Shown here: positions 5,164 to 31,088 of the stretch, one piece after another
How the letters are laid out: every line of letters starts with the position of its first letter
How positions within the stretch are numbered: position 1 is the first letter of the stretch
IMG/VR virus record: IMGVR_UViG_3300027886_000011
Location: 1-31,800 of that record
Direction: 5' to 3' (one strand)
DNA from: a virus
Lineage: Duplodnaviria; Caudoviricetes
DNA length: 31,800 bases
The notes under the pieces: model-generated
Told to the model about the DNA's origin: nothing
Database searches by the model: none
Seen by the model: only the letters and a program-made list of their open reading frames with translations
Made by a program: the position numbers and the translations under genes

Positions 5164-5721
5164 ATGCAAGGTTATGTTCGTAAGATATTTCTAGATAAAG
5201 GATTCGCGTTCATCGAAGGCTCAGACCAAAGGGACTACTTTTGTCACTGGTCTAAAATCCTTCGATCCTCTGTGCCTTTCAGAAATATGAAAGAGGGAGA
5301 TAAAGTTAGCTTTACATATGAGGAAGGTGACCAAGGTCCGAAAGCGATGAACGTGCTAATCATTAGAGAGGATCCAAATGGCAGAACCGACACCAACGAC
5401 CTCAGACAAGGACGCGAATCGACCGTCGGGGGAACAGAGGGAGGGTTATGTACCGGGAACGGCGACAAAAGTTCCTCTGAACCCGCACGGAGTAGAGAAT
5501 CTTCCTCCGGAACCGGAACCTCGAATCAAGGACCCGGCTTCAACAATCTCGGTCAATACAGCGACCTCCTTCGGAGGGACGACGCCGCTCAGTCCAGGAG
5601 CGGGTCGCACGATGAAGCAAGTGATCGACCTTGCCCGGCAGACCGAGCAGAGGAGAGACACAAAGAAGGAGATCTTCATCAATCTGTCGACGCCACTGAA
5701 CATCAAGACCAAACACGGTGA
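5164..5721 (+). CDS. Cold-shock domain protein (CSD in first ~69 aa) with long overlapping tail
   Basis: KGFAFI (RNP1), DYFCHWS (RNP2), EGDKVSF...GPKAMNV. Confidence 0.85.
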   Translation: MQGYVRKIFLDKGFAFIEGSDQRDYFCHWSKILRSSVPFRNMKEGDKVSFTYEEGDQGPKAMNVLIIREDPNGRTDTNDLRQGRESTVGGTEGGLCTGNGDKSSSEPARSRESSSGTGTSNQGPGFNNLGQYSDLLRRDDAAQSRSGSHDEASDRPCPADRAEERHKEGDLHQSVDATEHQDQTR

Positions 5722-6436
5722 AGTCCAGGCAGGTCCTGGTGATATCGTGATGCGCGTCGGAGGTCATCACGCCGTTTTTACGCAGGACGCTTTCGAAGAA
5801 CTCGGCGATTTCGACTTCAGTGCAGGGAACTACGATACACTCCTGCGAGAAACTCTGAAGCGTGGCGTTATTGCCCGTCGTCTCGATGACGGAAACCATC
5901 TGCCCCTCACTCCAGAGCAGGAAGCCGAAGCCGACGCAAACATCGAGAAGGAAGTCGCGCGCGCCAGAGAGGCTAGAGAAACTGAACGGGCGCGCAAACA
6001 GAAGCTCGTTGAGGCGTTCTCGAAACAGGGCAGAGAGGGCGAAGGTGCAGGAGTAACGGTCGCACAGGTCTGGAACGTCGTAGATTCCAGTGAGGGTCCA
6101 CCCACGGCGACCCCAAGTGAAACTGCGACACTAGTTCCCCAGGCCATCCCCATCGAAGTTGTCGACGCTGGAGGTGAGGCGCCCCCTCCCGAGGGAGTGG
6201 ACGCGACAGGAGCGACAGCAGGAAGTCCTGGCTCTTTCACTCCGAGCGGCGCAACACCAGCGGCAGACCTCGCAGGTCTCAGCGCCTGTATAGCCAGCCC
6301 GACGACTCCGTGGACTGAAGGTCAGCACGTCATTCTCGGCGACGGCAGCCACGCATACTGGGACGGAACGGCCTGGTTAGCAGGCGACGCTCCAGCACCG
6401 ATCGGTCGAAGCGCAGTTCCATCAAGTCGACGATAA
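5378..6436 (+). CDS. Hypothetical 352-aa protein with Pro/Thr-rich linker and Trp-rich C-terminal module
   Basis: GAGAGGA RBS; C-terminus ASPTTPWTEGQHVILGDGSHAYWDGTAW. Confidence 0.75.
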   Translation: MAEPTPTTSDKDANRPSGEQREGYVPGTATKVPLNPHGVENLPPEPEPRIKDPASTISVNTATSFGGTTPLSPGAGRTMKQVIDLARQTEQRRDTKKEIFINLSTPLNIKTKHGEVQAGPGDIVMRVGGHHAVFTQDAFEELGDFDFSAGNYDTLLRETLKRGVIARRLDDGNHLPLTPEQEAEADANIEKEVARAREARETERARKQKLVEAFSKQGREGEGAGVTVAQVWNVVDSSEGPPTATPSETATLVPQAIPIEVVDAGGEAPPPEGVDATGATAGSPGSFTPSGATPAADLAGLSACIASPTTPWTEGQHVILGDGSHAYWDGTAWLAGDAPAPIGRSAVPSSRR

Positions 6437-9036: not shown

Positions 9037-9396
9037 TTGATTGATTGGTTTAAGAGTCTTTTTGTCCATACATATACTCTGCCTCAACCTTGCGCGGGTT
9101 GCATGGCTCGACAGGCGCACATCGAGGACTTGCAAAACCTTCTCAAGTCTGAGCGAGAAAGTTATGCAAGTCTACTTGCGATTGTAGTACCAACGAGCCG
9201 AAGTCAACCTACTGAGCAGGTCACCGAAGCCGAACTGAAGCCATTGAGGAATAATCTCTCGATATCTCAGCTCAGAAGAATAGCAGAACAGAGAGAACGT
9301 GAGCAGCATCCCAATGCTAACAAGGAATATTGGGAGCGCGTGCAGGCCGACTACGACAAGGCAGGAAAACTTCCTACTGTTGAAGTAAATGGCTGA
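9037..9396 (+). CDS. Hypothetical protein (CxxC plus coiled coil)
   Basis: GGGAGG RBS before TTG at 9037; overlaps the next start. Confidence 0.65.
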   Translation: MIDWFKSLFVHTYTLPQPCAGCMARQAHIEDLQNLLKSERESYASLLAIVVPTSRSQPTEQVTEAELKPLRNNLSISQLRRIAEQREREQHPNANKEYWERVQADYDKAGKLPTVEVNG

Positions 9397-12300
9397 AGAC
9401 TACGAAGGATTATACGGTCGCGCTCTCCGTGCGCTTACAGGCGTGCGTGACTGGTACTCTGAGCAAACCGATCCTAATCGTCCTCGCAAACGTGGTGCTG
9501 TCGACGTTAATCTTCCTGTAGCGCCACCTGTAGAAAAACCTTGGTATGAGAAGATTACTTCTCCCCTAGAGCTCGCAGAACAGATTGGTAGAAAGTCTGT
9601 TGAGCCAGTTAAGGCACAGGTTAAATCCGCTGGGGGTAAACTCGCAGGTGCTCTCGGTGCAACCTCGGAGAGTTCAGGGCGCGCGTTTGGCGCGGCATTA
9701 GACGTATTCGATCCAAGAAATACAGGTTCTGAAAAGAAGCCTGTGTCAGATATCGCTTGGGAAGGTCTGAAAGGTGTCAGATCAGGATATGAAGCTGGGT
9801 TAGGAGCTACTTCTGCGTCACAAGAATTCACGAAGCGCGCCTCAGAAGAGACATTGAGAGGCGCTAATCCTGTACAACGTGGAATGCTAGGTCTTGGTCT
9901 TGACGTAGTAACTGATCCAACCAATCTAGTTCCAGAGAAGTATCTTGCCACTGGCGCTGGTGCTCTGCTAGGTGCAGGAGACATTGCTCAGACAGCTTGG
10001 CTTACTCCTAGTCTCTGGAAGAAAGCTCGTGGTGTTGAGGGTTTCTCGCATAACCTGAATTACGCTAGTGACGCTGAAAAGATTCTTCAAACTGGCTTTG
10101 GAGTACATTCTGGTGAAGATGTACTTGAGCGTATGGGTCATGCAGGCTATTACACCCCTGCTCAGGCTAAGACAGCTCGTGCATCAGGCCAAGCTCCAAA
10201 AGGTCTTTCCAACCAGAGCTATTCCTACGATCCACAATTACCCATAGACTTTCCAGAGACTACTAAAGTTTTAGATGTCCGGATGGCCCCTGTGCCTCGT
10301 GAGGATATCGATGTAATTCTTTCTAGGCTTGATCCAGTTCAAGATAAGAATTATATAGAGTCCATCGAAAAGGCATGGGAAGCTCAGCGTCCTTATGCTG
10401 AAGCAGTACCACATGCGGACGTCAGGTCAGGTAAGATTAAGCCTGAAGTTCTCGCAAAACATTACAAGACTCTGAATGCAGATCCGGTAGCGAGAAAAGC
10501 TATTGAAGATCTCAATTCCCTACTAACTTATCCTAGTCATAGCGATGTGGGAGGATATGTAGGTCAAGTTCATGGTATAGGTGGTGTGCCTGGAAAGACA
10601 GGGACATCTGCACTCAATCATCCAAGTATGCCGATGGAGTATGGTGCGATCCACTATAGTGACTATGTGGCTGGTCATGGTTATGATAAACAGGGATCGA
10701 TAGCATTTGATCCCAGACAAACTCTAGTTGCTCCCCCAGGAACTACTCTAGATCCTAAAAAGACTCCTTGGCAACCAATGGGACTTGCTCCAGCAGGCAC
10801 GCCCAAGGGAGATTATGGGTCATCATACTTCAAAGGAGTTATACCATCAGATGCTCCAGGTGGAGTATCAGCTCCACTTCCAGGACAGGCTCCTAGCGCT
10901 CCTGTAGTGCAACCACCGACGCCATCTCCAGCGATTGAAGCTCAACAATGGGTAGAACAGAATGTCGAGCCGCCAAAGAATTATCCTCCAGGTGGCCCTG
11001 CATTCATGGGTAAGCCTATCTCAGTATATGAGCAAGGAACTCTCAAAGAGCTAGAAGCTGCTGGCAGACCTCTAGATGCATTACAGACTGAAAAGCTCAA
11101 GGCTGTAAAGCTTTATGAGTCTGGTCAGGCTCCTGATAGCTCAATTATTCCGGACGCCGCAGATCTAAATCGCCCAGCTACAATGGGGCAGCACTGGAAT
11201 GATGTGCAGAGTATTTTCGAGGAGGCACCAGGATTTGATGCGGAGGGATTCATTAACTGGAATAAAGGAAATCCTGATCTGACTCCAGCACAACTTCATG
11301 CGAATGCAATTGACGAACTAGAGCAGGCTGGATTTACTGAGGCAGCTAATGATCTTAAACAGTTGTGGGACACTAAGGTTAAGGCTGAATCTCCTTATAC
11401 GCCAAGCACTCATCCTGCACTTGCTGATTTTATAGACGATGTTGAGCCAGTTGTAGAAAAGGTAGATGTGTTTGATCCTGGAAGTGGGAAGTCCTTTGGA
11501 ACTTTCGACTCACAGGCTCAAGCGGATGCCTTCATAAACTCGCATCCTCAAAGACAATTTCTAGACTCTGCTCCTCATGATCCCCTGTACATGGCAGGAG
11601 AGACTGAATTCCCGTCAACGGTACAATATGAAAACCTAGATGTTGCTGGGGAGAATTTCGACGCACTCATGAAGGGTGCTACGAGGCAACCTGCTCCAGG
11701 ACCGAAACTTATCAAGAAACCCGAGTTGCCCCCTGCTCTGCCTGAGGGATTTGGAGGCTTTGACGATATTCCTGAGCCTGCTGCTCTTAGCCCGATGGGT
11801 AAAGAATCCATCGGAGTTCTAGATGCTGAAGGTAGTCTAGATTATCTGAGGAATACCTATCCAGAAGTTGCAGAGAACTTTGCTAAGCACAGTGGGACAG
11901 AGATGGGTAGCATCGAGTCCCATACAAAGGATGTGCTTAAACAATGGAAGACTCAATTAGCTCCAGAAGAACTTGCAGACATCTCCAATCGTTTTGGGAC
12001 AGATGTAAATGCCTTGCTGAATGTGGCGCTCCCACTGCATGACATTGGAAAGCCTGGTGCTCTGGCTGCTGGTGACAAAACCATGCAGCACGCGCACACC
12101 ATTCCTATAATGCAGGACGTTCTAGCAAAGGAAGGTTTTGACGAAAGAGAGATTGCTCTTGCTACAGAGCTTTTCAATCATGACATGATTGGTTCTCTTC
12201 TGCAAGGGTCGAGTAAGCTCACTCCACAAGGAGTCGCAGATCAGATCGCAAAGAAAGCTGACAAGCTCAGCATGAATCCTTCTGATTTTGCTAAGCTGCA

Positions 12301-13189
12301 ACTTGCTTTCTTTCAGGCAGATGCTTCATCGTATCCTTTTGTCACGCAATACATGAAGCAACAGCCAAATGGTGGCTGGATATCAGGTAGCCCTAAAGTT
12401 AAACCTATTGAAGATTTGATTGCAGGACCTAGTGCTGTTAAGAGCGCGCCAGCGACTGTCGAGACAAATTATACGCTCAAGGTTCCTGAAGATGAAGCCA
12501 TCGACATGCTCGGTGGCACAAAGAATAAAGCAATCTATACCAAGGGTGGTCAGGACTATTTGTTCAAGGAAGCTAATCCACCTTACTTCGCAGATCAAGA
12601 GGTAAGTGCAAATAAGATTTCTAATCTGTCAGGCTTGCATCCTATTAAGATAGAAAAGAGCACGATGGGTGGTAAGCCTGGGACGATGCAAGCTGCTGTA
12701 GGAAACAGTTTCAACTGGCCTACGCTCAAGGAAGTTGATCCTAAAACACTCACTGCTGAGGAGCTTCGAGACATAATCAGAAATCATCCTGTAGACTGGC
12801 TTACAGGAAACATGGATGCTCACGGTGGTCAGTTCCTAAAGACTCCGAATGGTATCGTGGAGGTCGATCGGGGGCGCGCCTTTAAGAGCTATGGAGGTAA
12901 TAAGTTAGATGAAGATTTCAATCCTACAGGTGGACTTGGCTACGAGGATCAGTTATACAACGTCATAGTAAAAGAGTACAAGAAGGGTAATCTACCACAG
13001 CTAACTGAGGGAGATATTAAGACTGCTCTTGATCAAACGATTTTCAAAATGGAACAGAATCATGGTCCTATTATGCAAGAGATTTATAGGGGCCTAGATC
13101 GTAGTAATCAAACAAGTCTTTATACTGTTGCAAATAAGCGAATGCTGAATCTACGAACTGACATGTTTAAGTTCTGGTCTAAGAAATGA
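9389..13189 (+). CDS. Large polyvalent protein: ART-like, HD phosphohydrolase and HipA/PI4K-like kinase domains
   Basis: SH...AEKILQTGF...GHAGYYT...YGAIHY...IAFDPRQ (ART-like); HT...LHDIGK...H...HD...D (HD); LGG...YLFKE...E...DWLTGNMDAHGGQF...VDRG (kinase). Confidence 0.7.
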   Translation: MAEDYEGLYGRALRALTGVRDWYSEQTDPNRPRKRGAVDVNLPVAPPVEKPWYEKITSPLELAEQIGRKSVEPVKAQVKSAGGKLAGALGATSESSGRAFGAALDVFDPRNTGSEKKPVSDIAWEGLKGVRSGYEAGLGATSASQEFTKRASEETLRGANPVQRGMLGLGLDVVTDPTNLVPEKYLATGAGALLGAGDIAQTAWLTPSLWKKARGVEGFSHNLNYASDAEKILQTGFGVHSGEDVLERMGHAGYYTPAQAKTARASGQAPKGLSNQSYSYDPQLPIDFPETTKVLDVRMAPVPREDIDVILSRLDPVQDKNYIESIEKAWEAQRPYAEAVPHADVRSGKIKPEVLAKHYKTLNADPVARKAIEDLNSLLTYPSHSDVGGYVGQVHGIGGVPGKTGTSALNHPSMPMEYGAIHYSDYVAGHGYDKQGSIAFDPRQTLVAPPGTTLDPKKTPWQPMGLAPAGTPKGDYGSSYFKGVIPSDAPGGVSAPLPGQAPSAPVVQPPTPSPAIEAQQWVEQNVEPPKNYPPGGPAFMGKPISVYEQGTLKELEAAGRPLDALQTEKLKAVKLYESGQAPDSSIIPDAADLNRPATMGQHWNDVQSIFEEAPGFDAEGFINWNKGNPDLTPAQLHANAIDELEQAGFTEAANDLKQLWDTKVKAESPYTPSTHPALADFIDDVEPVVEKVDVFDPGSGKSFGTFDSQAQADAFINSHPQRQFLDSAPHDPLYMAGETEFPSTVQYENLDVAGENFDALMKGATRQPAPGPKLIKKPELPPALPEGFGGFDDIPEPAALSPMGKESIGVLDAEGSLDYLRNTYPEVAENFAKHSGTEMGSIESHTKDVLKQWKTQLAPEELADISNRFGTDVNALLNVALPLHDIGKPGALAAGDKTMQHAHTIPIMQDVLAKEGFDEREIALATELFNHDMIGSLLQGSSKLTPQGVADQIAKKADKLSMNPSDFAKLQLAFFQADASSYPFVTQYMKQQPNGGWISGSPKVKPIEDLIAGPSAVKSAPATVETNYTLKVPEDEAIDMLGGTKNKAIYTKGGQDYLFKEANPPYFADQEVSANKISNLSGLHPIKIEKSTMGGKPGTMQAAVGNSFNWPTLKEVDPKTLTAEELRDIIRNHPVDWLTGNMDAHGGQFLKTPNGIVEVDRGRAFKSYGGNKLDEDFNPTGGLGYEDQLYNVIVKEYKKGNLPQLTEGDIKTALDQTIFKMEQNHGPIMQEIYRGLDRSNQTSLYTVANKRMLNLRTDMFKFWSKK

Positions 13190-20518: not shown

Positions 20519-22378
20519 ATGATCGAGAATCACGTTCCTATCCCGATACCTGATTTCAATGGCCTCTGGGATCGAGGTCCGGATGAAGCTATTCCGGTCG
20601 ATCACTTCAGGACCGCTCTGAATATACGGTACAAACCGTCAGGATTCTACACTCGGGAGGGTTCTGTCACAGACGTGACGTGTGGTGAGGTCTCGAGATT
20701 TCATGTCTACAAGATTACAGGTCAAGTTTCAAGACTCCTATATCTAATAGGAAACTCAATCTACGATTCAGCAGAACCTGCCAAAGGGCCAATCCTCACG
20801 ATTGGTGGAATGATTGACTTCTCAATGGAGACTTTCTTTGATCGGGCATACATTACTCCACACAATGGGGTAACTGGCATGCCCGGTCAGAGTGTTTATT
20901 ACTACACAGGCGCGGGTGTCGCACAGATTGCAGGAGGTGCGGCTGTTCCTCCTACACCTGGAATGACAGCTGGGGTATCTGGTATTGGATATTTCGACCC
21001 AGGTATTCATGCATTTGCCTGTGGATTTGAGACAGCTACAGGATTCATTACGCAATTTGGTGCATTCTGCCACTGCACAACGGAGGAGGATAAAGGAGTT
21101 CAGCTCACGAACATCCCCATCGGTCCTCCCGGGACTGTGGCGCGCATTCTATTCAGTACAAAGAATGTAGCTGATCCTGCGACAAATACGTTTAACGGGG
21201 ATTACCAGAATGCAGAATGGTTCTTCATCCCAACAGGGAGGATCGCAGATAACACGACAACTACAAAAGAAGGATCTTTCTTCGACGCTGATCTCGTCGA
21301 CCAGGCCGACTATATCCTTGAGCAATTACCCACTATACCTGCCGGGGTTGGGATCACCTCGTACCAAGGAAGCATGGTTGTCTGGGGAGAGGATGCTAAC
21401 CCGGCGACCGTTAGAGTTTCCAAAGCCGGGGAACCAGAGTCTTTTAATGCAGTTGAAGGCTTCGCTCAGGTTGAGCCAACGGTTGGAGGAGGGGTCAGAA
21501 ACTGTGTCGAATTCAGAAGTAGTCTCTATATCCTCAAAGCTACCAGATGCTACGTAACACAAGCCACGAATCAAGAGGCTCTGTTCTGGCAATATCCTCT
21601 TCTTGATGGCTCAGTAGGGACTGAGTGTCATGGAGTAGGAAAGATATTCGAGCGCAACTCTAATACAGTAGACAAATACCTAGTAGCCTCACGTCGAGGT
21701 CTTATGATGTTTACTGGTAATTTCGAGGAAGAGATTAGCTGGAAGGTAAAGGATATCTGGCAAAGAATCACCAAGATTTACTTCCAGAAGATTCAGGTTG
21801 CAATCGATTCAGATAATCAGGTTATCTACATTTCATTACCCTTAGATGGCTCGACTCTTACCAATGCATTGTTGGTGGGTGACTATACCAATGGATTAAA
21901 TGCTAAGAATATCAAGTGGGCTCTTTGGACATTTCCACATTATCCGATATCGATGGGACTTGATAATGATCTTGTATCGAAGGATATCATCTTCAGATAT
22001 GCAACACAGGCTGGAAATATTAGAAGGCTCGATATCACGCAACGTAATGATTATGACACCGCAATAATTACACAGTGGGAGACTGGTGAATTACCTGTCG
22101 ATTCTAAGGGTGAAGTCTTCCATCACGGCGGAGTGCGCCTCAGGGCTACAGGTGTAGGAAATCTTAGATTGACTGTAACGAGTCTCGATGGCGGTCAGGT
22201 TTATAATCTACCTGCTATTCCTCTAACTCTGTTTCCTGGTATCTACCCACTGAGAACCTACAATGCACAGAGTGAAAAGATAACACTTCGAGGAGTAACA
22301 CAGAACGCTGGCGAGTATATGGTTGTCACCAAGATGTGGCTGTTCGTTCGTCAGCTTTGGCTAACGAGGCCTCAGTAA
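20519..22378 (+). CDS. Tail nozzle / DNA stabilisation protein (P22 gp10 / T7 gp12-like)
   Basis: 619 aa, beta-rich; N-terminal DFNGL...ALNI, SKAGEPESF; position after the adaptor. Confidence 0.65.
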   Translation: MIENHVPIPIPDFNGLWDRGPDEAIPVDHFRTALNIRYKPSGFYTREGSVTDVTCGEVSRFHVYKITGQVSRLLYLIGNSIYDSAEPAKGPILTIGGMIDFSMETFFDRAYITPHNGVTGMPGQSVYYYTGAGVAQIAGGAAVPPTPGMTAGVSGIGYFDPGIHAFACGFETATGFITQFGAFCHCTTEEDKGVQLTNIPIGPPGTVARILFSTKNVADPATNTFNGDYQNAEWFFIPTGRIADNTTTTKEGSFFDADLVDQADYILEQLPTIPAGVGITSYQGSMVVWGEDANPATVRVSKAGEPESFNAVEGFAQVEPTVGGGVRNCVEFRSSLYILKATRCYVTQATNQEALFWQYPLLDGSVGTECHGVGKIFERNSNTVDKYLVASRRGLMMFTGNFEEEISWKVKDIWQRITKIYFQKIQVAIDSDNQVIYISLPLDGSTLTNALLVGDYTNGLNAKNIKWALWTFPHYPISMGLDNDLVSKDIIFRYATQAGNIRRLDITQRNDYDTAIITQWETGELPVDSKGEVFHHGGVRLRATGVGNLRLTVTSLDGGQVYNLPAIPLTLFPGIYPLRTYNAQSEKITLRGVTQNAGEYMVVTKMWLFVRQLWLTRPQ

Positions 22379-23805
22379 TGTTGCGCCCTGTCAAACCCCA
22401 GAGGGATGCAAGAATTGATGCCCTTGGAAATGACGAAAGGTCTGTCCTGATTCTTAAGGAGATTCTTCGTGATTTCAACAAGGATGTGCAAGCTGTCTAT
22501 GAAGTTATCCTTCCTATCGAGGCAGCTGTTAGGCCCATTATCACTGGTGGTGGGATAGGCTTATCTCCAGAGCCAACAAACTTTGCAGCTCAGGTAGTTC
22601 TCAATGGTATTCACCTGTCATGGGAAGCTCCCAATGCTGCGGCTCGACTGTATGAGATTCGTAGATCAGGAGATCTAAATTGGAATCTTGCGTCATTTGT
22701 GACGCGCACACCGTCGCTTTCTATACTTCTTGATCCTCTACCTTTTGGTTCATACTTCTTTTTGATTAAGACTATCGATACATTTGGTAATTACTCACCA
22801 AACTTTGCGAGCACAAGTGTCACGATTATATCACCAGGTAAGCCATTCGTGACGGCAGCAGTTATTGATAACAATGTTCTTCTGAACTGGACTACACCTA
22901 CAACTAGTTTCACAATCGACCGCTTTCGTGTGTACCGTAATAATAATCTTTACGGTGCGCTTCGCGCCACGTTTGTGTCAACCTTTGAAACGGTTGCAGG
23001 AGAATATACCTATGGAGTAGAAGCAATTGATATAGCTGGTAATGTAAGTGAGCTAGGAGAGGTTACTACAACTGTCAATACTCCACCGGATTATCAACTA
23101 TTAGATACAAAGGTTAGCGATCTGAATGGCACGATGGAGAATGTTGTACGATCCTCTACACCGAGCTTGATTGCTTGCGTCGATACCAATATAACTTGGG
23201 AACAGCATTTTGTAAATAGATCCTGGAGTACTCCTCAAGATCAGATCAATGCTGGTTATCCAATCTATATTCAGCCTACACTTACAACAGGCTGGTATGA
23301 GGAAGTTATTGATTATGGGATAGAGATTCAGAATACTATCGTTACAGTTACATATCAAATGATACAGATAGTTCCTGAAGTTAGTGTTTTAGTCAAGCTA
23401 TCCTATTCATCAGACAATATCACTTTTACTCCACTTCCACCTGGGCCATCGCAGTTCGTTCCTATCTTTCGTTACCTCAAGATGCGTCTTGAGTTTACAG
23501 GCTCTAGTGATAAGGCTTTAGCTGAATTCACCCTGATGACCACTACACTCGATGTTAAGCGAGAAGTAGATGGTGGTGAGATCATAGCACATGCTACAGA
23601 TGTAGATGGGACTCAAGTATTATTCAATAAAGTATTTAAGGATGTTAATTCTATCACTGCAACATGCGATTCTATCGAGCCAATTGTTATCATTTACGAT
23701 TTCCTGGATATACCTAACCCTGTAGGTTTTAAGGTCTTTGCTCTGGATTCCACAGGTAATCGTGTGACTTATTTAGTTTCTTGGAAGGCTAGGGGTATCG
23801 TCTAA
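22378..23805 (+). CDS. Tail protein with fibronectin type III-like repeats
   Basis: IHLSWEAP...YEIRR...YFFLIKTIDTFGNYS and VLLNWT...YTYGVEAIDIAGNVS; TAATG coupling. Confidence 0.75.
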   Translation: MLRPVKPQRDARIDALGNDERSVLILKEILRDFNKDVQAVYEVILPIEAAVRPIITGGGIGLSPEPTNFAAQVVLNGIHLSWEAPNAAARLYEIRRSGDLNWNLASFVTRTPSLSILLDPLPFGSYFFLIKTIDTFGNYSPNFASTSVTIISPGKPFVTAAVIDNNVLLNWTTPTTSFTIDRFRVYRNNNLYGALRATFVSTFETVAGEYTYGVEAIDIAGNVSELGEVTTTVNTPPDYQLLDTKVSDLNGTMENVVRSSTPSLIACVDTNITWEQHFVNRSWSTPQDQINAGYPIYIQPTLTTGWYEEVIDYGIEIQNTIVTVTYQMIQIVPEVSVLVKLSYSSDNITFTPLPPGPSQFVPIFRYLKMRLEFTGSSDKALAEFTLMTTTLDVKREVDGGEIIAHATDVDGTQVLFNKVFKDVNSITATCDSIEPIVIIYDFLDIPNPVGFKVFALDSTGNRVTYLVSWKARGIV

Positions 23806-24650
23806 TGTGGCAGAGATACAATCAGACTTCTAAGATTTTCGAGAAGTCTGTTGATAATGGAGTAACGTGGGCGCCACTGCCACTTAATGCCTCTATTCTT
23901 ACAGAGGGCACAATACCTAATGTCGCGTACGTAAATGTTTCAAATACCTTTGCACTGAATCAAAACTTTAGTGGGCATATCTATTCTAAAGGTTACATAT
24001 ATCCTGGACGTGCTGATATTGTTGATTCCCAGACTAATTGGTGGCTCGCAAGTCATGCATCTTATGGATTATATTCTAATACTGGTCTATACCTAACTGG
24101 TGGTTTATTGACTGTTGGCAGTGTAACTGTAGAATCTAATATTCAAACCAAAGGACAAATATTTCCTGGTCGAATTGATACAGTTGCTTTACAAAATTCT
24201 TGGTATCTTGGATCACATGGCGCATACGGATTATATAGTAACACTGGATTAGCCTTAAACGGAGCTATTTGGGAACGTGGTCGTTCTACAGCAGTAGGAC
24301 AGCATACTCGTTGGTATCCTTCTATGACTACGGATACTGGTGCTGGTATATCACTATATGACCAGATATGTCATTATTTTCAAATAGGCAAGATGGTCTT
24401 CTGGCAAATCTATGTGAACATGAACATAACAACTGCAACAACTTATGTTCGAGCAAGTCTACCCGCGGGATTGCCAGCAGGCTATAGTACTGGTTCTCGA
24501 ACCTATTGTCAGATACATAACAATGCAGCCTACACACAAGGTATGAGTCAAACGGAGGCAGCCAGCATAGTCTTCTGGCCTATAACTGGGAATTGGAATG
24601 TAGGAAACTGTCTTATTATGCATTGTCAAGGCTGGTACAATCTCGATTAG
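23805..24650 (+). CDS. Tail fibre-like protein with 54-aa internal duplication
   Basis: Duplicated KGxIxPGR...SHxxYGLYSNTGL unit; fibre-type C-terminal domain (YFQIGKMVF...SLP). Confidence 0.65.
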   Translation: MWQRYNQTSKIFEKSVDNGVTWAPLPLNASILTEGTIPNVAYVNVSNTFALNQNFSGHIYSKGYIYPGRADIVDSQTNWWLASHASYGLYSNTGLYLTGGLLTVGSVTVESNIQTKGQIFPGRIDTVALQNSWYLGSHGAYGLYSNTGLALNGAIWERGRSTAVGQHTRWYPSMTTDTGAGISLYDQICHYFQIGKMVFWQIYVNMNITTATTYVRASLPAGLPAGYSTGSRTYCQIHNNAAYTQGMSQTEAASIVFWPITGNWNVGNCLIMHCQGWYNLD

Positions 24651-25033: not shown

Positions 25034-25225
25034 ATGTCTGAGACTCCTAAACTTGAAATTACTATCGAAGAATTTTATCAGATCGTGGGGGAGTTAGAAG
25101 TTGTCAGGAGAAAACAAGCATTACAACTCCAACAGCTTTTTAGACAAGTTGACGAAATGTTTGCGGAAATTCAGCGTCTGAGGAATCCAGATGGCGGATT
25201 GGTCGAAGCCGACAATAACAAGTAA
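25034..25225 (+). CDS. Small coiled-coil protein (possible fibre chaperone)
   Basis: AGGA RBS; heptad pattern. Confidence 0.6.
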   Translation: MSETPKLEITIEEFYQIVGELEVVRRKQALQLQQLFRQVDEMFAEIQRLRNPDGGLVEADNNK

Positions 25226-25817
25226 TTACATTATATTCGTTGACGAGATTAAAGCTCGCGACGTTGATGCAATTACTTTACAACGTGTTCCACTGACTGC
25301 TCCTCCGACTGGGGCAATAAAGTTGGTTCGAAGCCCTGTCAAATTCCAGGAGTGGGACGGGACAACTTTTGTTGACCTAGTACTCTCGGTTGCAGGTGGT
25401 GGGACAGGTTCGTCTACTCCTGCAGGCGCGGGATCGGCTCTTGGCTTAGGTACAATGGCATATCAAAATGCCAATGCTATCGCAGTCACTGGAGGGAATC
25501 TTACTAATATTTCCATACATGGCGCATGTAATCATTATAATGGCACTCTCATAATTAATGAAAATCCAAGTCATGGTCTCATTTGCTATGGACCCCCTAA
25601 TACATCTGGGTATGCAGCCTATATTATCAGTTCTGGTGTTGCTGGCGCTGCAACAGGTCTTATTGTACAGGCAGGCTATAATGCGTCGGATTACTCATTT
25701 CAAGTTAGAAATCGAGCTGCAACAATAAGCTCTTTTTTAGTCCGTGGTGATATGGTCGCCGAATTTGGTCATAGACTTGTTATCCCTGTTGGCACAGATC
25801 TCTGGGCGCCTGTATAA
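25191..25817 (+). CDS. Tail fibre-like protein
   Basis: LSVAGGGTG...LGLGTMAYQNANAIAVTGG is a typical fibre-shaft motif. Confidence 0.7.
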   Translation: MADWSKPTITSNYIIFVDEIKARDVDAITLQRVPLTAPPTGAIKLVRSPVKFQEWDGTTFVDLVLSVAGGGTGSSTPAGAGSALGLGTMAYQNANAIAVTGGNLTNISIHGACNHYNGTLIINENPSHGLICYGPPNTSGYAAYIISSGVAGAATGLIVQAGYNASDYSFQVRNRAATISSFLVRGDMVAEFGHRLVIPVGTDLWAPV

Positions 25818-26635
25818 TGGTTAAAAGACCAGGCTCCCTTTGGATTGAAGGTGATAGCCTTCATTACATCGACCAAGGTGGTTATGAGTGGCGAGGTAAT
25901 GGGGAATTCGTTAAATACATAACAGCTAGACCAGGATCAGTTTGGTGTGACTCCTTTAATTTATATTATATAAATCAAGGGGGATATGCACAATTTAGAT
26001 GTCCTGGTGTGATTGTTCACACAGACAATGCCGCTCGCTGGGGATCTATCTGGATTGAAGGTTCTGAATTTCATTTTGAACTCGGACCTTATGATATTTT
26101 ATTCCATGAAGATGTAGCGCATACAGATGGTGGGGGTGCAGCAGGCCATACTGACCATACAGATCAATCTGCTCATATTGATGCGCCTCCTGGGGGTCAT
26201 TTAGATACGATCCATGACGACATTCATAACGATTGGCCTCATGGTGATTCACATACGGATGTTCATACTGATCAGGCTCATTGGGATGATCATGTAGATG
26301 GTGTTCATACGGATGGCCATTACGACCACACGGATGGTGCGCATCAGGACGTCCATGGCGATGACAGCCATTATGATGGTCATACTGACTACCATAGTGA
26401 TAAGTTAGTTCATCACATAGATGAGCATGGTGATGTAATTCATCAAGATACACATTCGGATGTTCCGCATCATGATGATCCTGGTGGTGCTTCACATGGC
26501 GATACTCCACATTCAGACGTTCCAGCAGGCTCACATGGTGATACACCTCACTCTGACGCGCCACACGTAGATCATAGTGATGCAGTTCATAATGATGTTC
26601 CACATCTCGACAATCCAGTATATGTAGGACCATGA
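25817..26635 (+). CDS. His-Xaa-Asp repeat protein; candidate radical SAM substrate
   Basis: Three RxGSxW repeats in residues 1-96, then ~34 HxD motifs; ATGA overlap with the rSAM gene. Confidence 0.85.
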   Translation: MVKRPGSLWIEGDSLHYIDQGGYEWRGNGEFVKYITARPGSVWCDSFNLYYINQGGYAQFRCPGVIVHTDNAARWGSIWIEGSEFHFELGPYDILFHEDVAHTDGGGAAGHTDHTDQSAHIDAPPGGHLDTIHDDIHNDWPHGDSHTDVHTDQAHWDDHVDGVHTDGHYDHTDGAHQDVHGDDSHYDGHTDYHSDKLVHHIDEHGDVIHQDTHSDVPHHDDPGGASHGDTPHSDVPAGSHGDTPHSDAPHVDHSDAVHNDVPHLDNPVYVGP

Positions 26636-27816
26636 GCGTAGAATATCTACCCGTTGGAATTGCGTGTAATATCAAGTGCGGCTATTGCTATCAAGACCCA
26701 ATGCGGGAAGCGGGTAACATCAATGTCCCAAGAGACTGGTCTAAGGCACAGAAACAACTTGATAGACTTGGTCAGAGCTTTGCTGTCTTTGGAGGAGAAC
26801 CGCTTCTTGCTCCTATCAAACATCTCGAAGAGGTATGGAAATTTGGTCTCGAGAGATTTGGGAGCAATGGAATCCAAACCAATGGGTCACTCATTACAGA
26901 CGAACATATTGAGCTCTTCGCCAAATACAGAGTACAAGTAGGTATCTCGATAGATGGTCCAGCTTATATGAATTCGGTTCGATGTGATATTGAACTAACT
27001 ACCAAGACAGAGATTGCAATTATTAAACTCTGTGGTGTTGGCATCATTCCGTCTATCATCTGCACGATCCATCGAGGTAACAATGACCTTCCTCGTCTTT
27101 GCAACTGGTTCGATCATCTTAATAGGTGTGGTATCAGGCATCTTAATCTACACGAGATGGAAATCGATTGTGGAAGACATGACCTCGCCCTCTCCGAAGA
27201 AAGACAAATCGAAACTTACTTAGAACTCTATGAGTGGTCGAAGACAACAAAGATGCAGGTTCTACCCTTTGTTGATATCAAGAAACTTCTTACGGAGGAT
27301 TCTCCTAGTGTAATGTGCGTGTGGAATCATTGCGATCCAATTACAACTGCCGCTGTACAAGGAGTATCTCCAGATGGTGTTATGTCAAATTGTGGTAGAA
27401 CTAACAAGGACGGAGTCAACTGGGTCAAAGCTGACACTCCAGGAATTGAGCGATATCTATCTCTTTACAGAACAGATCAAAAGTACGGTGGTTGTCGGGA
27501 TTGTAAGTACTTCGCTTTCTGCAAAGGTCACTGTCCGGGGACTGCCATCGACGGAGATTGGCGAAACCGAACAGTCAATTGCAGACTCTGGTTCTCGCTC
27601 TTTGAGCGAATAGAATCAGATATGATATCTTCAGGAGCGCGCGTGCTCAGCACTTCTGACAAACAAGGTATTATCGATCATCTGCTTGCAGGTGTTCACC
27701 CGGTGAACAGCCACGGAGATGTTCCTCATGGCGACTCACATGGCGATCATACTGATCACGGTATTCCAGCTACAATTCTAAAGGAGATTCCAGAGTGGGC
27801 GACGTCAAAAAGCTAG
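26632..27816 (+). CDS. Radical SAM/SPASM domain maturase
   Basis: CNIKCGYC (CxxxCxxC), GGEPLL, QTNG, GISIDG; SPASM Cx4Cx19C...Cx2Cx5Cx3Cx15C. Confidence 0.95.
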   Translation: MSVEYLPVGIACNIKCGYCYQDPMREAGNINVPRDWSKAQKQLDRLGQSFAVFGGEPLLAPIKHLEEVWKFGLERFGSNGIQTNGSLITDEHIELFAKYRVQVGISIDGPAYMNSVRCDIELTTKTEIAIIKLCGVGIIPSIICTIHRGNNDLPRLCNWFDHLNRCGIRHLNLHEMEIDCGRHDLALSEERQIETYLELYEWSKTTKMQVLPFVDIKKLLTEDSPSVMCVWNHCDPITTAAVQGVSPDGVMSNCGRTNKDGVNWVKADTPGIERYLSLYRTDQKYGGCRDCKYFAFCKGHCPGTAIDGDWRNRTVNCRLWFSLFERIESDMISSGARVLSTSDKQGIIDHLLAGVHPVNSHGDVPHGDSHGDHTDHGIPATILKEIPEWATSKS

Positions 27817-29138
27817 ATTTTGTAATTCCAGATTTTCTTCGTGTCGTTTGGACTTCAGAAGCTGCGCGAGAATTCTGGCAATCAAAGATTAATGCGCTCT
27901 CAAATCTATGGAAAGGCGTTGAGCTACTTACACTGATCGATAGTTTGAGACCTGGAATCTTACAGAGTGTTGAGCCTTTAGTTCTACCAGAGCTACAACT
28001 TTGGGCACTTAAGCATAATGTACAGATGGCTATTGTAGGTGTTGATGGCGCTACCCAGGGATCTTATGCGAATGCTACTATTCCGTATGAGTCTGGTAAG
28101 CGATTCACCTACCGAGTCTATTTCGGTCTAGAACCAGAGAGATTCCTAGATGCGTGGCGCGCTCAAGACGATATCACTATTGGTCACATGCTTGACTTTC
28201 CTGATTGTTGCGTCAGGTTTTTTCAAAAGCATTGGAAAGAGTCGGGATGGAGAGACTACACAGCTTTAACTTTTGACTCTAGAGACCAAAAGAATGCAGT
28301 CTACAACAATGTGCTACTCCGCCACATTGGGATTAGGGGAGTTTTCCACCTTCCCTGTTCTGTAGACTGCAGAGCTAGCATCAAACGAGGTCAAGAGATC
28401 TTGCAATTAATGGACAATAATAAGCTCAATAGAGAAATGAGTTGGTTGGAAGAGCTACTCTCTATGCCAATGCAGTGGACATCATTGCATGGTATTGCTA
28501 TTGTTGTCACTCCTATTCTAAAGACTATTTATGCAAGTGACGCACTTGCACACAAAGTTACGCTTAACTTACATAGTGATGACTATCCACAGTATGGTGC
28601 AAGTGGCAATCAATTCCCATTTACCAATGTCCTACCACTTAAATTCAACAAACATTGGAATGGGTTTAGGTCCCTTGAAGCCATGCAAACCGCACACGAC
28701 TTTATCGTTTCTATCTTACCTGAGATAAAGGGTAAGGTTCTAGACCTAGGCTGTGGTACAGGCCAACTCCTCAAGGCTATACAAAAGGCGCACCCTAACA
28801 CGTTTCTTTATGGGATAGATTGCGATCCAGCAGCTATAACTAAAGGCGCACAGGGTATCAAGTATTTAGAAATCAACATCTTTGACCACCGAGCATGGGA
28901 GGAAGTTGACCTCACGCTTATTGCAATCCAACGACTGTATGAAGTGCCAGAGTCCAAGGCAATGGCACTTATGGAGGTGATTTACAACTACTCAGATATG
29001 TTACTTCTTTACAGCTACGACGGATGGTTCGATGATGTAGCCAAATTTATCGAGCCCTATTTTGATGTCATGACGACAGCAAACAACCCTGTCGCAAATC
29101 TTAGAGCAGTTCTTTTGAAAGGCAAAGCTCATGTCTAG
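27795..29138 (+). CDS. Cys-motif (DUF483-like) domain fused to class I SAM-dependent methyltransferase
   Basis: GHMLDFPDCCVRFF and FHLPCSVDC; C-terminal KVLDLGCGTG...YGID; GTG start with AAGGAG RBS. Confidence 0.75.
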   Translation: MGDVKKLDFVIPDFLRVVWTSEAAREFWQSKINALSNLWKGVELLTLIDSLRPGILQSVEPLVLPELQLWALKHNVQMAIVGVDGATQGSYANATIPYESGKRFTYRVYFGLEPERFLDAWRAQDDITIGHMLDFPDCCVRFFQKHWKESGWRDYTALTFDSRDQKNAVYNNVLLRHIGIRGVFHLPCSVDCRASIKRGQEILQLMDNNKLNREMSWLEELLSMPMQWTSLHGIAIVVTPILKTIYASDALAHKVTLNLHSDDYPQYGASGNQFPFTNVLPLKFNKHWNGFRSLEAMQTAHDFIVSILPEIKGKVLDLGCGTGQLLKAIQKAHPNTFLYGIDCDPAAITKGAQGIKYLEINIFDHRAWEEVDLTLIAIQRLYEVPESKAMALMEVIYNYSDMLLLYSYDGWFDDVAKFIEPYFDVMTTANNPVANLRAVLLKGKAHV

Positions 29139-29682
29139 TGACGATTACGCGCGGCTGTTCTTTCAGACTATCAACAAGCAGCCAGGTCAGCCTGCTGATG
29201 ATTACGAGAAGGTGCTCGGCGAAAGTGGTATTCCAGCAGGCTATGGTCCAAACATCAAGCCTGATGCGTCTATGCCATTCAATGCAATGACGCAGCAGAT
29301 CGGTAGTGATGGTCGTATCGCAGGTCGCATCTTTCTACCTACTGCGACGCCTGACGAGAACAACTATTACACACATCCGTTCTCACCACTACGTGACGGC
29401 CCAACACTAGGCTCGTTGGTCTGGGAATGGCGCGACCTTGGTGGTCCTCCTGTCGTGACACCTGAAGGTGGAGTTAGCCGAGAAGAAGTTAAGGCCATGA
29501 TCGACGCTGCCTTAGGTAACGTCGTGAAACTCAAGGATAAGATTGCGCTTCGCACCAATTCAGGTCTGCTAGCAGGAATTAAAGGCGGTGGACCAACTGT
29601 CAATGATGCTCCGATCAACTGGATCGGCAAGACAGGCGATGCTCATTCCTGGGAGTCGCTAACCATCGAGAGGGGCGAATGA
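29131..29682 (+). CDS. Hypothetical protein with a C-terminal fascin/beta-trefoil-like repeat
   Basis: KIALRTNSGLLAGIKGGG...HSWESLTI resembles one fascin-like repeat. Confidence 0.55.
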   Translation: MSSDDYARLFFQTINKQPGQPADDYEKVLGESGIPAGYGPNIKPDASMPFNAMTQQIGSDGRIAGRIFLPTATPDENNYYTHPFSPLRDGPTLGSLVWEWRDLGGPPVVTPEGGVSREEVKAMIDAALGNVVKLKDKIALRTNSGLLAGIKGGGPTVNDAPINWIGKTGDAHSWESLTIERGE

Positions 29683-31088
29683 ATCCCGCTACAATTCATG
29701 GCTACTGTGACGAGATCGAAATCCTCCTCCAGAAGATTCGGAATGAGGTTGATGATGTCGATCCAGAAATTCCCACGGATGAGATTGTTGTAAGTGAACC
29801 TGGGGATCTTCAACCGTCATTGACAGCTGGGGGTGCGGTTGCTCTAGCTCCTGACGTAGAATTCATTGGTAGCTACGAGTTTGACACTCCAAGTACATCT
29901 CTGCGTGGTCAGGGTGGGAATAAGATTGTTGGGCAAAACAACCCTGCCCTACGTGTAGGTATCGATATTGACAACATCAGAATCCAAACATTGGAAGGTG
30001 AGTCGAATTATGACAGTGTGATTCGTGTCGGTAAAAACGATACAAATCAAGTAGAAGTCGATCAAGCACCCCACACTGTAGCGATTCATCAAGTGTTTGT
30101 CGAATCCCATCGTGGGAAGCGAGGCATTGAGATCAATGCAGCCAATGTTGAAATCATTGACTGCGAGGTACGGGATGTCTACGCCACTAGCAAACAGGAT
30201 AGTCAAGCTATTGCGATCCTGAATGCTCCTGGTCCTGTTCTTATCTCAGGTGGTTATTTCGAGGCCGCCAGTGAGAATATCATGGTCGGTGGTGACAGCA
30301 TGAAGATTCCAAACTGCCGTCCAACAGGAGTCACCATTAAGGATGCAACCTTCACCAAGCCAATCGCTTGGAAAGGAAATCCTGACATCCCGACCAAGAA
30401 TCTCATTGAATTGAAGGATGGGCATGATGTACATATCCTTCGATGTATCCTGACCCATTCATGGGCTAGTGGACAGGACGGCTATGGCTTCATGTTCACA
30501 CCCAAGAATGGTGGATCACTACGAAATGTGGTGGTCGAGGATTGTGAGATGTCTGAAGTTGGTGCGATAGTTAACATCACTGGTCATGACTTCACATCGG
30601 ACGTGGCTTCGACATTGCCCCGTACGCAGGTGACGTTTCATGGTGGTACCTATCTCACAAACAAGACAGCGATGGGCGGCCCTGGTCGGTTCTGTCTTAT
30701 CACTGAAGGCCCAGAGCGGGTGGTGTTCGATGGATTAACGATTGAACACGAAGGCTCGTCGTTTATCGACTATGCCGACAAAGATTCGTGTGATGTCCTA
30801 TATATCCTGAATAGCACCTGGAACTATGGGTCATACGGCCTGCGAATCGGTGGCGCGAATCATGGTGATAACACAGCAGGGATCATCAAGGATCTTCGGA
30901 TTGAAGATAACACGATCCGGGGCGCGCATTCACAGTTCAGATCTCGCTACCCCAATAACATCTACATCGAGGCAATGAGTGCTAAGCGAGAGCGCGAAAT
31001 AGATTCCAAATATGCTGTGCAGGTAATGGAACGTGAAGTATCAGAAGAACTAAAGCGTTTAAGAGCTAGATTAAAATCCGATGTCTAA
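29679..31088 (+). CDS. Right-handed parallel beta-helix protein (tailspike/depolymerase-like)
   Basis: Repeating coils such as NVEIIDCEV, GVTIKDATF, DVHILRCIL, NVVVEDCEM, DLRIEDNTI. Confidence 0.75.
   Translation: MNPATIHGYCDEIEILLQKIRNEVDDVDPEIPTDEIVVSEPGDLQPSLTAGGAVALAPDVEFIGSYEFDTPSTSLRGQGGNKIVGQNNPALRVGIDIDNIRIQTLEGESNYDSVIRVGKNDTNQVEVDQAPHTVAIHQVFVESHRGKRGIEINAANVEIIDCEVRDVYATSKQDSQAIAILNAPGPVLISGGYFEAASENIMVGGDSMKIPNCRPTGVTIKDATFTKPIAWKGNPDIPTKNLIELKDGHDVHILRCILTHSWASGQDGYGFMFTPKNGGSLRNVVVEDCEMSEVGAIVNITGHDFTSDVASTLPRTQVTFHGGTYLTNKTAMGGPGRFCLITEGPERVVFDGLTIEHEGSSFIDYADKDSCDVLYILNSTWNYGSYGLRIGGANHGDNTAGIIKDLRIEDNTIRGAHSQFRSRYPNNIYIEAMSAKREREIDSKYAVQVMEREVSEELKRLRARLKSDV

Follow-up and report, generated by a model that had tools for sequence, protein, structure and literature searches.

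A His-x-Asp repeat protein, a radical SAM/SPASM enzyme and a DUF483-like partner encoded in a phage tail module

A three-gene cassette in the tail module of a virus (IMG/VR record IMGVR_UViG_3300027886_000011; the whole 31.8-kb stretch analysed, positions 1 to 31,800, is called the window) encodes a 272-amino-acid (aa) protein dense in His-x-Asp triplets (the HxD protein), a radical S-adenosylmethionine (SAM) enzyme with a SPASM domain (rSAM) and a DUF483-like protein fused to a methyltransferase. Triceptides carry a link from an aromatic residue to a C-beta on aromatic-X2-X3 motifs (PMC11499958). The His-motif triceptide synthases HaaB (HAA), YhhB (HNR), HtkB (HTK), MicB (HAS) and ChlB/ChlH are rSAM/SPASM enzymes (PMC11499958, PMC12912966, PMC12636437), and for HAA, HNR, HTK and HAS a His-C2 link has been established (PMC11499958; PMC12912966). 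The cassette shares with them the aromatic-x-x motif, the exchange of His for Phe/Tyr/Trp and HExxH hydroxylase neighbours, and the likeness extends to position-3 selectivity, which one active-site residue sets in triceptide enzymes. It differs in that His-x-Asp/Asn is not among the motifs published in the accessible parts of those sources, in having tens of motifs on a folded carrier rather than one to three (1-3) on a cleaved peptide, and in being phage-encoded, with a DUF483-like partner and with scores below every family cut-off.

A second system, the anti-phage system HXS (HxsABCD), is the nearest precedent for a His-x-X repeat protein matured by rSAM enzymes; it likewise combines such a protein with rSAM maturation and a partner protein (PMC13128918). 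It has two rSAMs, five basic repeats, one +8 Da site and a role in periplasmic host defence, whereas the window has one rSAM, 36 acidic repeats and a place in a phage tail operon.

The gene trio itself is in print for the Thermus phages Cumys (genes 13/12/11) and phiMa (29/28/27) as an 'rSAM module' made up of an rSAM, a protein with DUF483 and an uncharacterised third gene; DNA modification was suggested for it, and homologues were noted near deazapurine genes in cyanobacteria (PMC11437467). The accessible main text of that paper has no mention of HxD, histidine, RiPP or tail fiber (0 hits). The window cassette has the same composition: the enzymes are 45% identical, the proteins made of a cap domain and His-x-Asp triplets are 37% identical, the DUF483-like partner is the same, and so are the motif at the end of the upstream fibre and the position behind tail genes. 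The Thermus partner differs in having no methyltransferase domain. The third genes, Cumys gene 13 and phiMa gene 29, encode a cap followed by His-x-Asp triplets that hold 54 of 54 and 53 of 53 His, respectively; both directly follow baseplate and fibre genes, and the gene upstream ends in the fibre motif. In a third Thermus phage, phiLo (L167, 11512-17368), three consecutive cap-less genes after the baseplate genes contain 55, 101 and 72 His-x-Asp, and the rSAM/partner pair lies on the opposite strand, from where it would serve them in trans.

We somewhat favour the reading that the rSAM crosslinks His to Asp on a fibre-tip, adhesin-like protein in the style of the ribosomally made peptides with post-translational modifications known as RiPPs; both the chemistry and the virion location are what we infer. 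The system is real and widespread, a known enzyme class in a role for which we found no report. In the accessible literature, we found no paper reporting RiPP-type radical crosslinking on a virus particle, and none on such a function for His-Xaa-Asp with radical SAM in a phage, virion or tail-fibre context. An original prediction, made from the sequence alone, had named no described phage system like this; that stands for the repeats and their function but not for the gene trio.

The tract, the enzyme and the partner

The three open reading frames (ORFs) lie on the + strand at 25817-26635 (HxD protein), 26632-27816 (rSAM, 394 aa) and 27795-29138 (DUF483-like/methyltransferase protein, 447 aa). 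They overlap one another, the upstream fibre gene (base 25817 is common to both) and the downstream ORF 29131-29682. The HxD protein has 39 His in total and 36 His-x-Asp triplets. Its tract, the predicted rSAM substrate, spans residues 97-265 (26105-26611, +) with 35 triplets: Asp stands at +2 for 35 of 36 His, compared with a mean of 8.0 (sd 2.2, maximum 17) in 10,000 shuffles. At other offsets from His, Asp was counted 2 (+1), 4 (+3), 0 (+4) and 3 (+5) times. The spacers between triplets are irregular, mostly 3-9 residues. Tandem Repeats Finder found no DNA repeat under the tract; therefore the pattern exists at the protein level, and a DNA-level repeat origin was ruled out. These figures agree with the original prediction that nearly every His in this segment has Asp at +2 and that the spacers vary; its count of about 34 motifs in a repeat-rich protein is corrected to 36. 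Comparison with relatives showed that the ends of the tract are conserved and the middle is variable. In one close relative the HxD protein is 50% identical and the fibres 36-58%, compared with 82% for the enzyme (82-86% for the enzyme, partner and nozzle genes).

Co-occurrence was determined in an enzyme-selected set made up of 76 viral loci and, out of 271 cellular matches, the best 80. A His-x-Asp/Asn tract lay within ~6 kb of the enzyme in 65 of the 76 viral and 69 of the 80 cellular loci, whereas nine control motifs reached at most 2 viral and 7 cellular loci. After dereplication at 90%, the counts were 46/50 and 59/70. His-x-Ser/Thr tracts near the enzyme were found in 0 of 156 loci. The proposal that HxD-repeat genes co-occur with homologues of the rSAM was thus borne out, while the framing of the system as phage-only was contradicted by the 271 matches in cellular genomes. 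Cellular tract carriers comprise peptides of 60-110 aa, twin-arginine-like precursors, proteins of 900-1,850 aa and a flavin adenine dinucleotide (FAD) oxidase; lipoprotein-like proteins are also among the bacterial carriers. At eight bacterial loci, giant proteins (880-1,850 aa) with C-terminal His-x-Asp tracts stand directly before the enzyme, and apart from one LamG they had no family match. The hosts of the bacterial tract loci include a cultured Cohnella, an Aquimarina and a Sphingomonas. A newly found cyanobacterial locus has 40 triplets and a probable HExxH neighbour. The neighbours that recur in cellular loci are genes for peptide tailoring (HExxH, PqqD-like, HprK-like, NTP_transf_5). 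An HExxH protein is present in 20 of the 80 cellular loci, and 19 of 19 tested pass the cut-off of TIGR04267 (peptide beta-hydroxylase), an activity that needs a pre-formed cyclophane according to the accessible part of PMC12636437. Two loci deserve separate mention. A 156-kb viral contig (L053, 6001-11545) carries two rSAM and two DUF483-like paralogues together with a cap protein whose tract is nearly pure His-x-Asn (16/17), and at another (L082) a copy of the whole module is split into many short frames, probably by sequencing error.

The rules of the motif were derived from 210 non-redundant viral and cellular tracts. The residue at +2 after His is Asp/Asn in 98% of viral and 95% of cellular cases, and Glu/Gln in only 12 of ~4,900; the middle position is hardly ever Pro. 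His or Asp makes up 37% of the tract composition. Asp/Asn stands at +2 after 34% of Phe/Tyr/Trp, compared with 5.5% after other non-His residues and 6% after R/Q/L/P, each one mutation from His; this aromatic excess was seen in 116 of 144 tracts. Across tracts His is replaced only by Phe/Tyr/Trp and Asp only by Asn. Judged by its sequence, the motif is one that follows the aromatic-x-x pattern defining triceptides, and the tract lies, as triceptide substrates do, as aromatic-X2-X3 beside an rSAM/SPASM gene. The original prediction of an HxD analogue of triceptide/Hxs maturation therefore stands as regards an aromatic-x-Asx rule but not as regards membership of a named family.

The rSAM (26632-27816, +) has 3 + 8 conserved Cys, namely CxxxCxxC at C12/16/19 and eight SPASM cysteines matched in alignment by those of anaerobic sulfatase maturase (anSME), which confirms the predicted complete rSAM/SPASM enzyme. 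Its Pfam PF04055 score (45.6 bits vs a cut-off of 29.5), together with the CxxxCxxC and GGE motifs and the auxiliary-cluster cysteines, places it in the radical SAM/SPASM superfamily. Ten of the 11 cysteines are kept in 121 of 121 non-redundant homologues and C19 in 120 of 121. The enzyme has no N-terminal RiPP recognition element. Its closest solved relative is anSME and the second is ChlB, a cyclophane synthase. The nearest named families in NCBIfam are the cyclophane enzymes AmcB (70.8 bits, cut-off 425), DynA (68.1/450) and YhhB (55.7/445), all far under cut-off, followed by GrrM/OscB (39.3/310), XyeB (36.3/450), FxsB (28.4/370) and HxsB (28.3/370). Since no NCBIfam cut-off was reached, the rSAM belongs to an unnamed family, and its cellular homologues likewise fall short of the named-family cut-offs. 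Family membership with Hxs, XyeB, GrrM or FxsB was not supported (28-39 bits against cut-offs of 310-450). The low HxsB score, the lack of an NCBIfam HxsA match for the HxD protein and the absence of His-x-Ser/Thr tracts place the system outside the His-Xaa-Ser (Hxs/HXS) family.

The rSAM itself ends in four His-x-Asp triplets (residues 361-375; 27712-27756, +), a tail that had escaped the original prediction. Of the 120 best rSAM homologues, 111 have at least two His-x-Asp within their final 70 aa; our guesses are a self-substrate or a docking site. Residue 257, in N-C-G-R-T-N-K beside an auxiliary-cluster Cys, is Thr in 77 of 85 Asp-only rows. There are four separate viral lineages rich in His-x-Asn, and in three of them the residue is Ala/Gly instead of Thr; this co-variation with His-x-Asn use is suggestive, not decisive. 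No counterpart of the selectivity position HtkB D214/HaaB H204 could be placed on the window rSAM. The enzyme tree was a quick one without bootstrap, with the best 80 of 271 cellular rows, and therefore no direction of transfer was drawn.

The third ORF begins with a DUF483-like domain (27795-28649, +; Pfam DUF483, 30.6 bits, cut-off 25), whose conserved residues are four Cys (C138, C139, C188, C192) and one His (H232). It is a near-obligate partner, adjoining the rSAM in 70/76 viral and 77/80 cellular loci, with a fusion to the rSAM in 18 of the 80. The model of the domain (predicted local distance difference test, pLDDT, 96) matched 2guk, a protein of unknown function (Z 9.2, root-mean-square deviation (rmsd) 3.4, 101 aligned, residues 34-152), and the sole ESM Atlas lead, at 0.75, pointed to a DUF483 cluster. 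NleE was considered as a fold clue and set aside as weak (Z 5.2), and no function was drawn from these matches. The ORF continues with a class I SAM-dependent methyltransferase domain (28650-29138, +), a predicted optional tailoring enzyme, so that the Cys-motif/SAM-methyltransferase fusion had been read correctly. The methyltransferase is fused to the partner in 61/76 viral and 30/80 cellular loci. It is optional, because it is missing in Cumys, phiMa and phiLo; the suggestion of methylation thus finds a domain here, although not as a required part of the system. Its best solved relatives are plantazolicin methyltransferases, for the SAM-binding core only. PIMT-type RiPP O-methyltransferases form aspartimide. 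No PCMT/PIMT row appeared in Pfam at E 0.01 or among the best 60 of 109 solved-structure hits.

The cap and the upstream fibre

The first 98 residues of the HxD protein (25817-26110, +) form the cap, predicted to be a fibre-tip attachment module with swappable cargo. An alignment (n = 34) revealed three G-S-x-W-x-E/D repeats with pseudo-threefold arrangement, and the AlphaFold2 model is one all-beta domain (pLDDT 88). Foldseek found no solved-structure match to the cap at E 0.001, and the best structural match was weak (Z 3.9, rmsd 4.6, 91 residues aligned). Against a viral structure library there was one match, an unnamed protein of 342 aa with a template-modelling score (TM) of 0.84, which by its equal length is probably the phiMa gene 29 product. 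The cap family comprises 588 clusters at 50% identity; the best 150 of these include 96 with tracts, 28 with other cargo and 26 short members. A LamG lectin is the cargo of one cap protein. Two further cap proteins carry other arrays, Phe-x-Asn in P0251 and mixed Tyr/His-x-Asp in P0154.

Upstream lies a short tail-fibre-like gene (25191-25817, +; 208 aa) with a weak PHROG tail-fibre match (E 0.003), the predicted docking partner of the cap. Its C-terminus is L-V-I-P-V-G plus a few residues, and P199 and G201 are invariant in 24 homologues. In a fibre-selected set of 80 viral loci, chosen on the basis of this gene, 10 fibres have the L-V-I-P-V-G ending, and a cap gene follows every one of them (10/10). 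In the other 70 loci, 50 of which have at least 2.5 kb downstream, cap, tract and enzyme are absent from the available sequence. Nine of the 10 caps carry tracts, and the tenth (L179) has other cargo; in the complete 47.8-kb L179 genome there was no match to the enzyme in a search with a positive control. Five cap-less relatives likewise gave no match to the enzyme. Of the 50 cap loci in the enzyme-selected set, 39 have the fibre motif either upstream of the cap or on the same chain, compared with 0 of 26 cap-less loci. In cap-less phages it is often the C-terminal end of a tail protein encoded after the tape measure that bears the tract, or else a collagen fibre. At five loci a short fibre gene ending in L-P-V-G is accompanied by a longer paralogue with a fibre-cap-tract fusion, hinting at a 2+1 heterotrimer.

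Given the linkage of the cap to the fibre motif, L179 and the tail-protein fusions, the HxD protein behaves like a virion fibre-tip protein, and a location in the virion is likely. This comparative support bears on the location part of the original prediction that the product may be a modified virion protein. A parallel may be drawn with gp38 of the T2/T6/S16 type, a monomer behind the trimeric gp37 fibre with an N-terminal attachment domain, a repeat scaffold and variable segments, as described in the accessible part of PMC12032242. The two differ in that no sequence or fold relationship was found and the window cap is all-beta with three repeats; the gp38 scaffold is polyglycine, whereas His-x-Asp is the scaffold here and is predicted to need an enzyme. 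The HxD protein had no PHROG or Pfam match, the cap fold searches gave no gp38 row, and glycine-rich motifs are absent.

Proposed mechanism and alternatives

The observed basis of the proposed mechanism is the genes, motifs, cysteines and co-occurrence described above. The tract would be the substrate of the rSAM/SPASM enzyme acting with its DUF483-like partner. In each triplet, His would be joined to the beta-carbon of Asp, as in His-motif triceptides, giving a three-residue cyclophane and a loss of 2 Da (-2 Da each). The cap, as a pseudo-threefold monomer, would bind all three chains of the trimeric fibre at their C-terminal L-V-I-P-V-G motifs, in a gp38-like manner. With about 35 staples, the His/Asp chain of low complexity would then become a rigid rod that resists proteases; its variable middle may contact the host or host matrix, and the methyltransferase would add optional tailoring. 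More tentatively, and with rather less confidence than in the crosslinking itself, we suggest that many unrelated phages build receptor-binding fibre tips from a polypeptide made rigid by phage-encoded stapling of dozens of His-x-Asp, and that tail proteins, collagen fibres, exported peptides, giant proteins and even the enzyme carry the His-x-Asx array as a tag that is portable and has no leader.

So far, RiPP-type radical crosslinking has been described for short peptides of bacteria and for a single defence protein. If the crosslinking reading is true, it adds a class of virion post-translational modification and an enzyme stapling many sites along a whole protein. It would also give the DUF483-like family a role and correct the published guess of DNA modification. 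The system is directly testable, since the cultured Thermus phages phiMa, Cumys and phiLo carry it.

Several observations weigh against the crosslinking reading. About 35 modified sites per chain are a large demand for which no direct precedent was found, and HXS, the best-studied His-x-X repeat system, gives +8 Da at one repeat and not many -2 Da staples. The closest solved relative of the rSAM is anSME, and the rSAM stays below the cut-off of every named cyclophane family. In the available DNA, 11/76 viral and 11/80 cellular loci have no tract, some of them being contig ends, and the fibre motif is missing from 11/50 cap loci. The nine tract-bearing fibre-selected loci mostly coincide with the enzyme-selected set; therefore the independent evidence from the fibre-selected set is limited to the 70 negatives and L179. 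With regard to residue 257, three Asp-only lineages have Ala as well, and both Thr257 and Val257 paralogues are present at the fourth Asn-rich locus. Finally, a cyanobacterial locus in a dpd island (L252 9323-13038, G061) has the enzyme and partner but no tract within ~10 kb on either side. Its enzyme adjoins DpdD and DpdK and is flanked by two coiled-coil fibre-like genes, one with a heptad His-Asp repeat instead of His-x-Asp.

The enzyme pair may modify the same tract by other chemistry: the link could run from His-N to C-beta, the change could be Hxs-like at +8 Da, with a gain of carbon and desaturation, or there could be epimerisation or modification that is only partial. We consider this unlikely, although a serious contender. 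The co-occurrence and co-variation data are equally compatible with it, and the DUF483-like partner may act as another catalyst, given its four conserved Cys, its one His and the lack of any functional fold match; the methyltransferase fused in most viral loci is a further point in its favour. The published HxsA change of +8 Da at one repeat supports it too, and it also speaks against the original analogy of Hxs with a simple -2 Da crosslink. On the other hand, Phe/Tyr/Trp in place of His fit an aromatic-carbon link better than imidazole-nitrogen chemistry, the HxsB score is far below its cut-off, and the HExxH neighbours point to cyclophanes.

It is improbable that the modified protein is a cell-envelope effector (superinfection exclusion or an HXS-like block of DNA entry) or a released peptide rather than a part of the virion. 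Precedent exists in HXS, whose His-x-Ser protein is matured by rSAM enzymes and keeps phage DNA from entering in the accessible account of PMC13128918, and cellular versions of the tract protein include short precursors and twin-arginine-like leaders. However, the phage protein is acidic and not basic, has no signal peptide and is encoded in a late tail operon. Moreover, it is coupled to the fibre-end motif, its tract is fused to tail proteins in other phages, and it had no PADLOC match.

Slightly less probable still is an unmodified metal-binding array, with the enzymes loading metal or acting elsewhere. The His/Asp content, the fibre-tip location and the twin-arginine-like and lipoprotein-like bacterial carriers would suit it, and HxH iron sites exist in T4-type fibre needles. 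Metal binding alone fits worse because Glu/Cys, not Phe, would be expected as substitutes. Glu and Cys do not take the place of Asp or His, yet Phe, which does not ligate metal, and Asn, which does so weakly, are found there, in the extreme as almost pure arrays of His-x-Asn or Phe-x-Asn; the spacing is irregular, and tract and enzyme are gained and lost together. Metal binding after stapling stays compatible with these data.

The suggestion that the rSAM module makes a DNA modification, which draws on the homologues near cyanobacterial deazapurine genes in the accessible part of PMC11437467 and on the tract-less DpdD/DpdK locus, is very improbable: the third gene of Cumys and phiMa encodes a cap and His-x-Asp triplets behind baseplate/fibre genes, QueC was found in 0 of 5 complete related phage genomes (control positive in 13/14; DpdA was not searched for), the recurrent cellular neighbours tailor peptides, and even the dpd-island locus is flanked by fibre-like genes.

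Other features of the window

The virus record is 63% complete, and terminase, SU10-type adaptor and tail genes are present. The DNA runs containing the window are soil metagenomes; two soil DNA runs, one of which may be the source, have contigs over the cassette region, and none of the listed sequencing runs containing this region is an RNA run. Further upstream of the cassette, 22336-24650 (+) holds two genes, with matches to PHROG 1727 and 31: one for an FN3/host-specificity tail protein of 489 aa, the other for another fibre (281 aa), which is highly variable. The three genes had been placed between the fibre genes and a beta-helix gene; they do overlap, but a 183-aa ORF precedes the beta-helix gene, so that the two are not adjacent (29131-31088 holds both). 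Both genes, of 183 aa and of 469 aa (beta-helix-like), are inserts that vary and lie between the cassette and a conserved 130-aa gene, and only some relatives have them; neither had a family match in the library scans of the window proteins. No protease or exporter was found among the window genes scanned with NCBIfam, Pfam and PHROG in this partial record.

A sigma-70-like site at 25789-25818 (+; 11-of-12) has its -10 box on the stop/start junction and reaches into the start codon; it was dismissed as a chance match, with 25 such sites found vs 19.9 expected in shuffles. Between the terminase and probable portal genes, a 1,266-aa ORF (9389-13189, +) has a weak HD-domain match at residues 863-962 and no match in PHROG or PDB; its C-terminal stretch presumably resembles a kinase, and it is a possible packaged effector. 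The ORF at 5164-5721 (+), whose N-terminus we take to resemble a cold-shock domain, overlaps a 352-aa ORF (5378-6436) with a weak major-tail-protein match.

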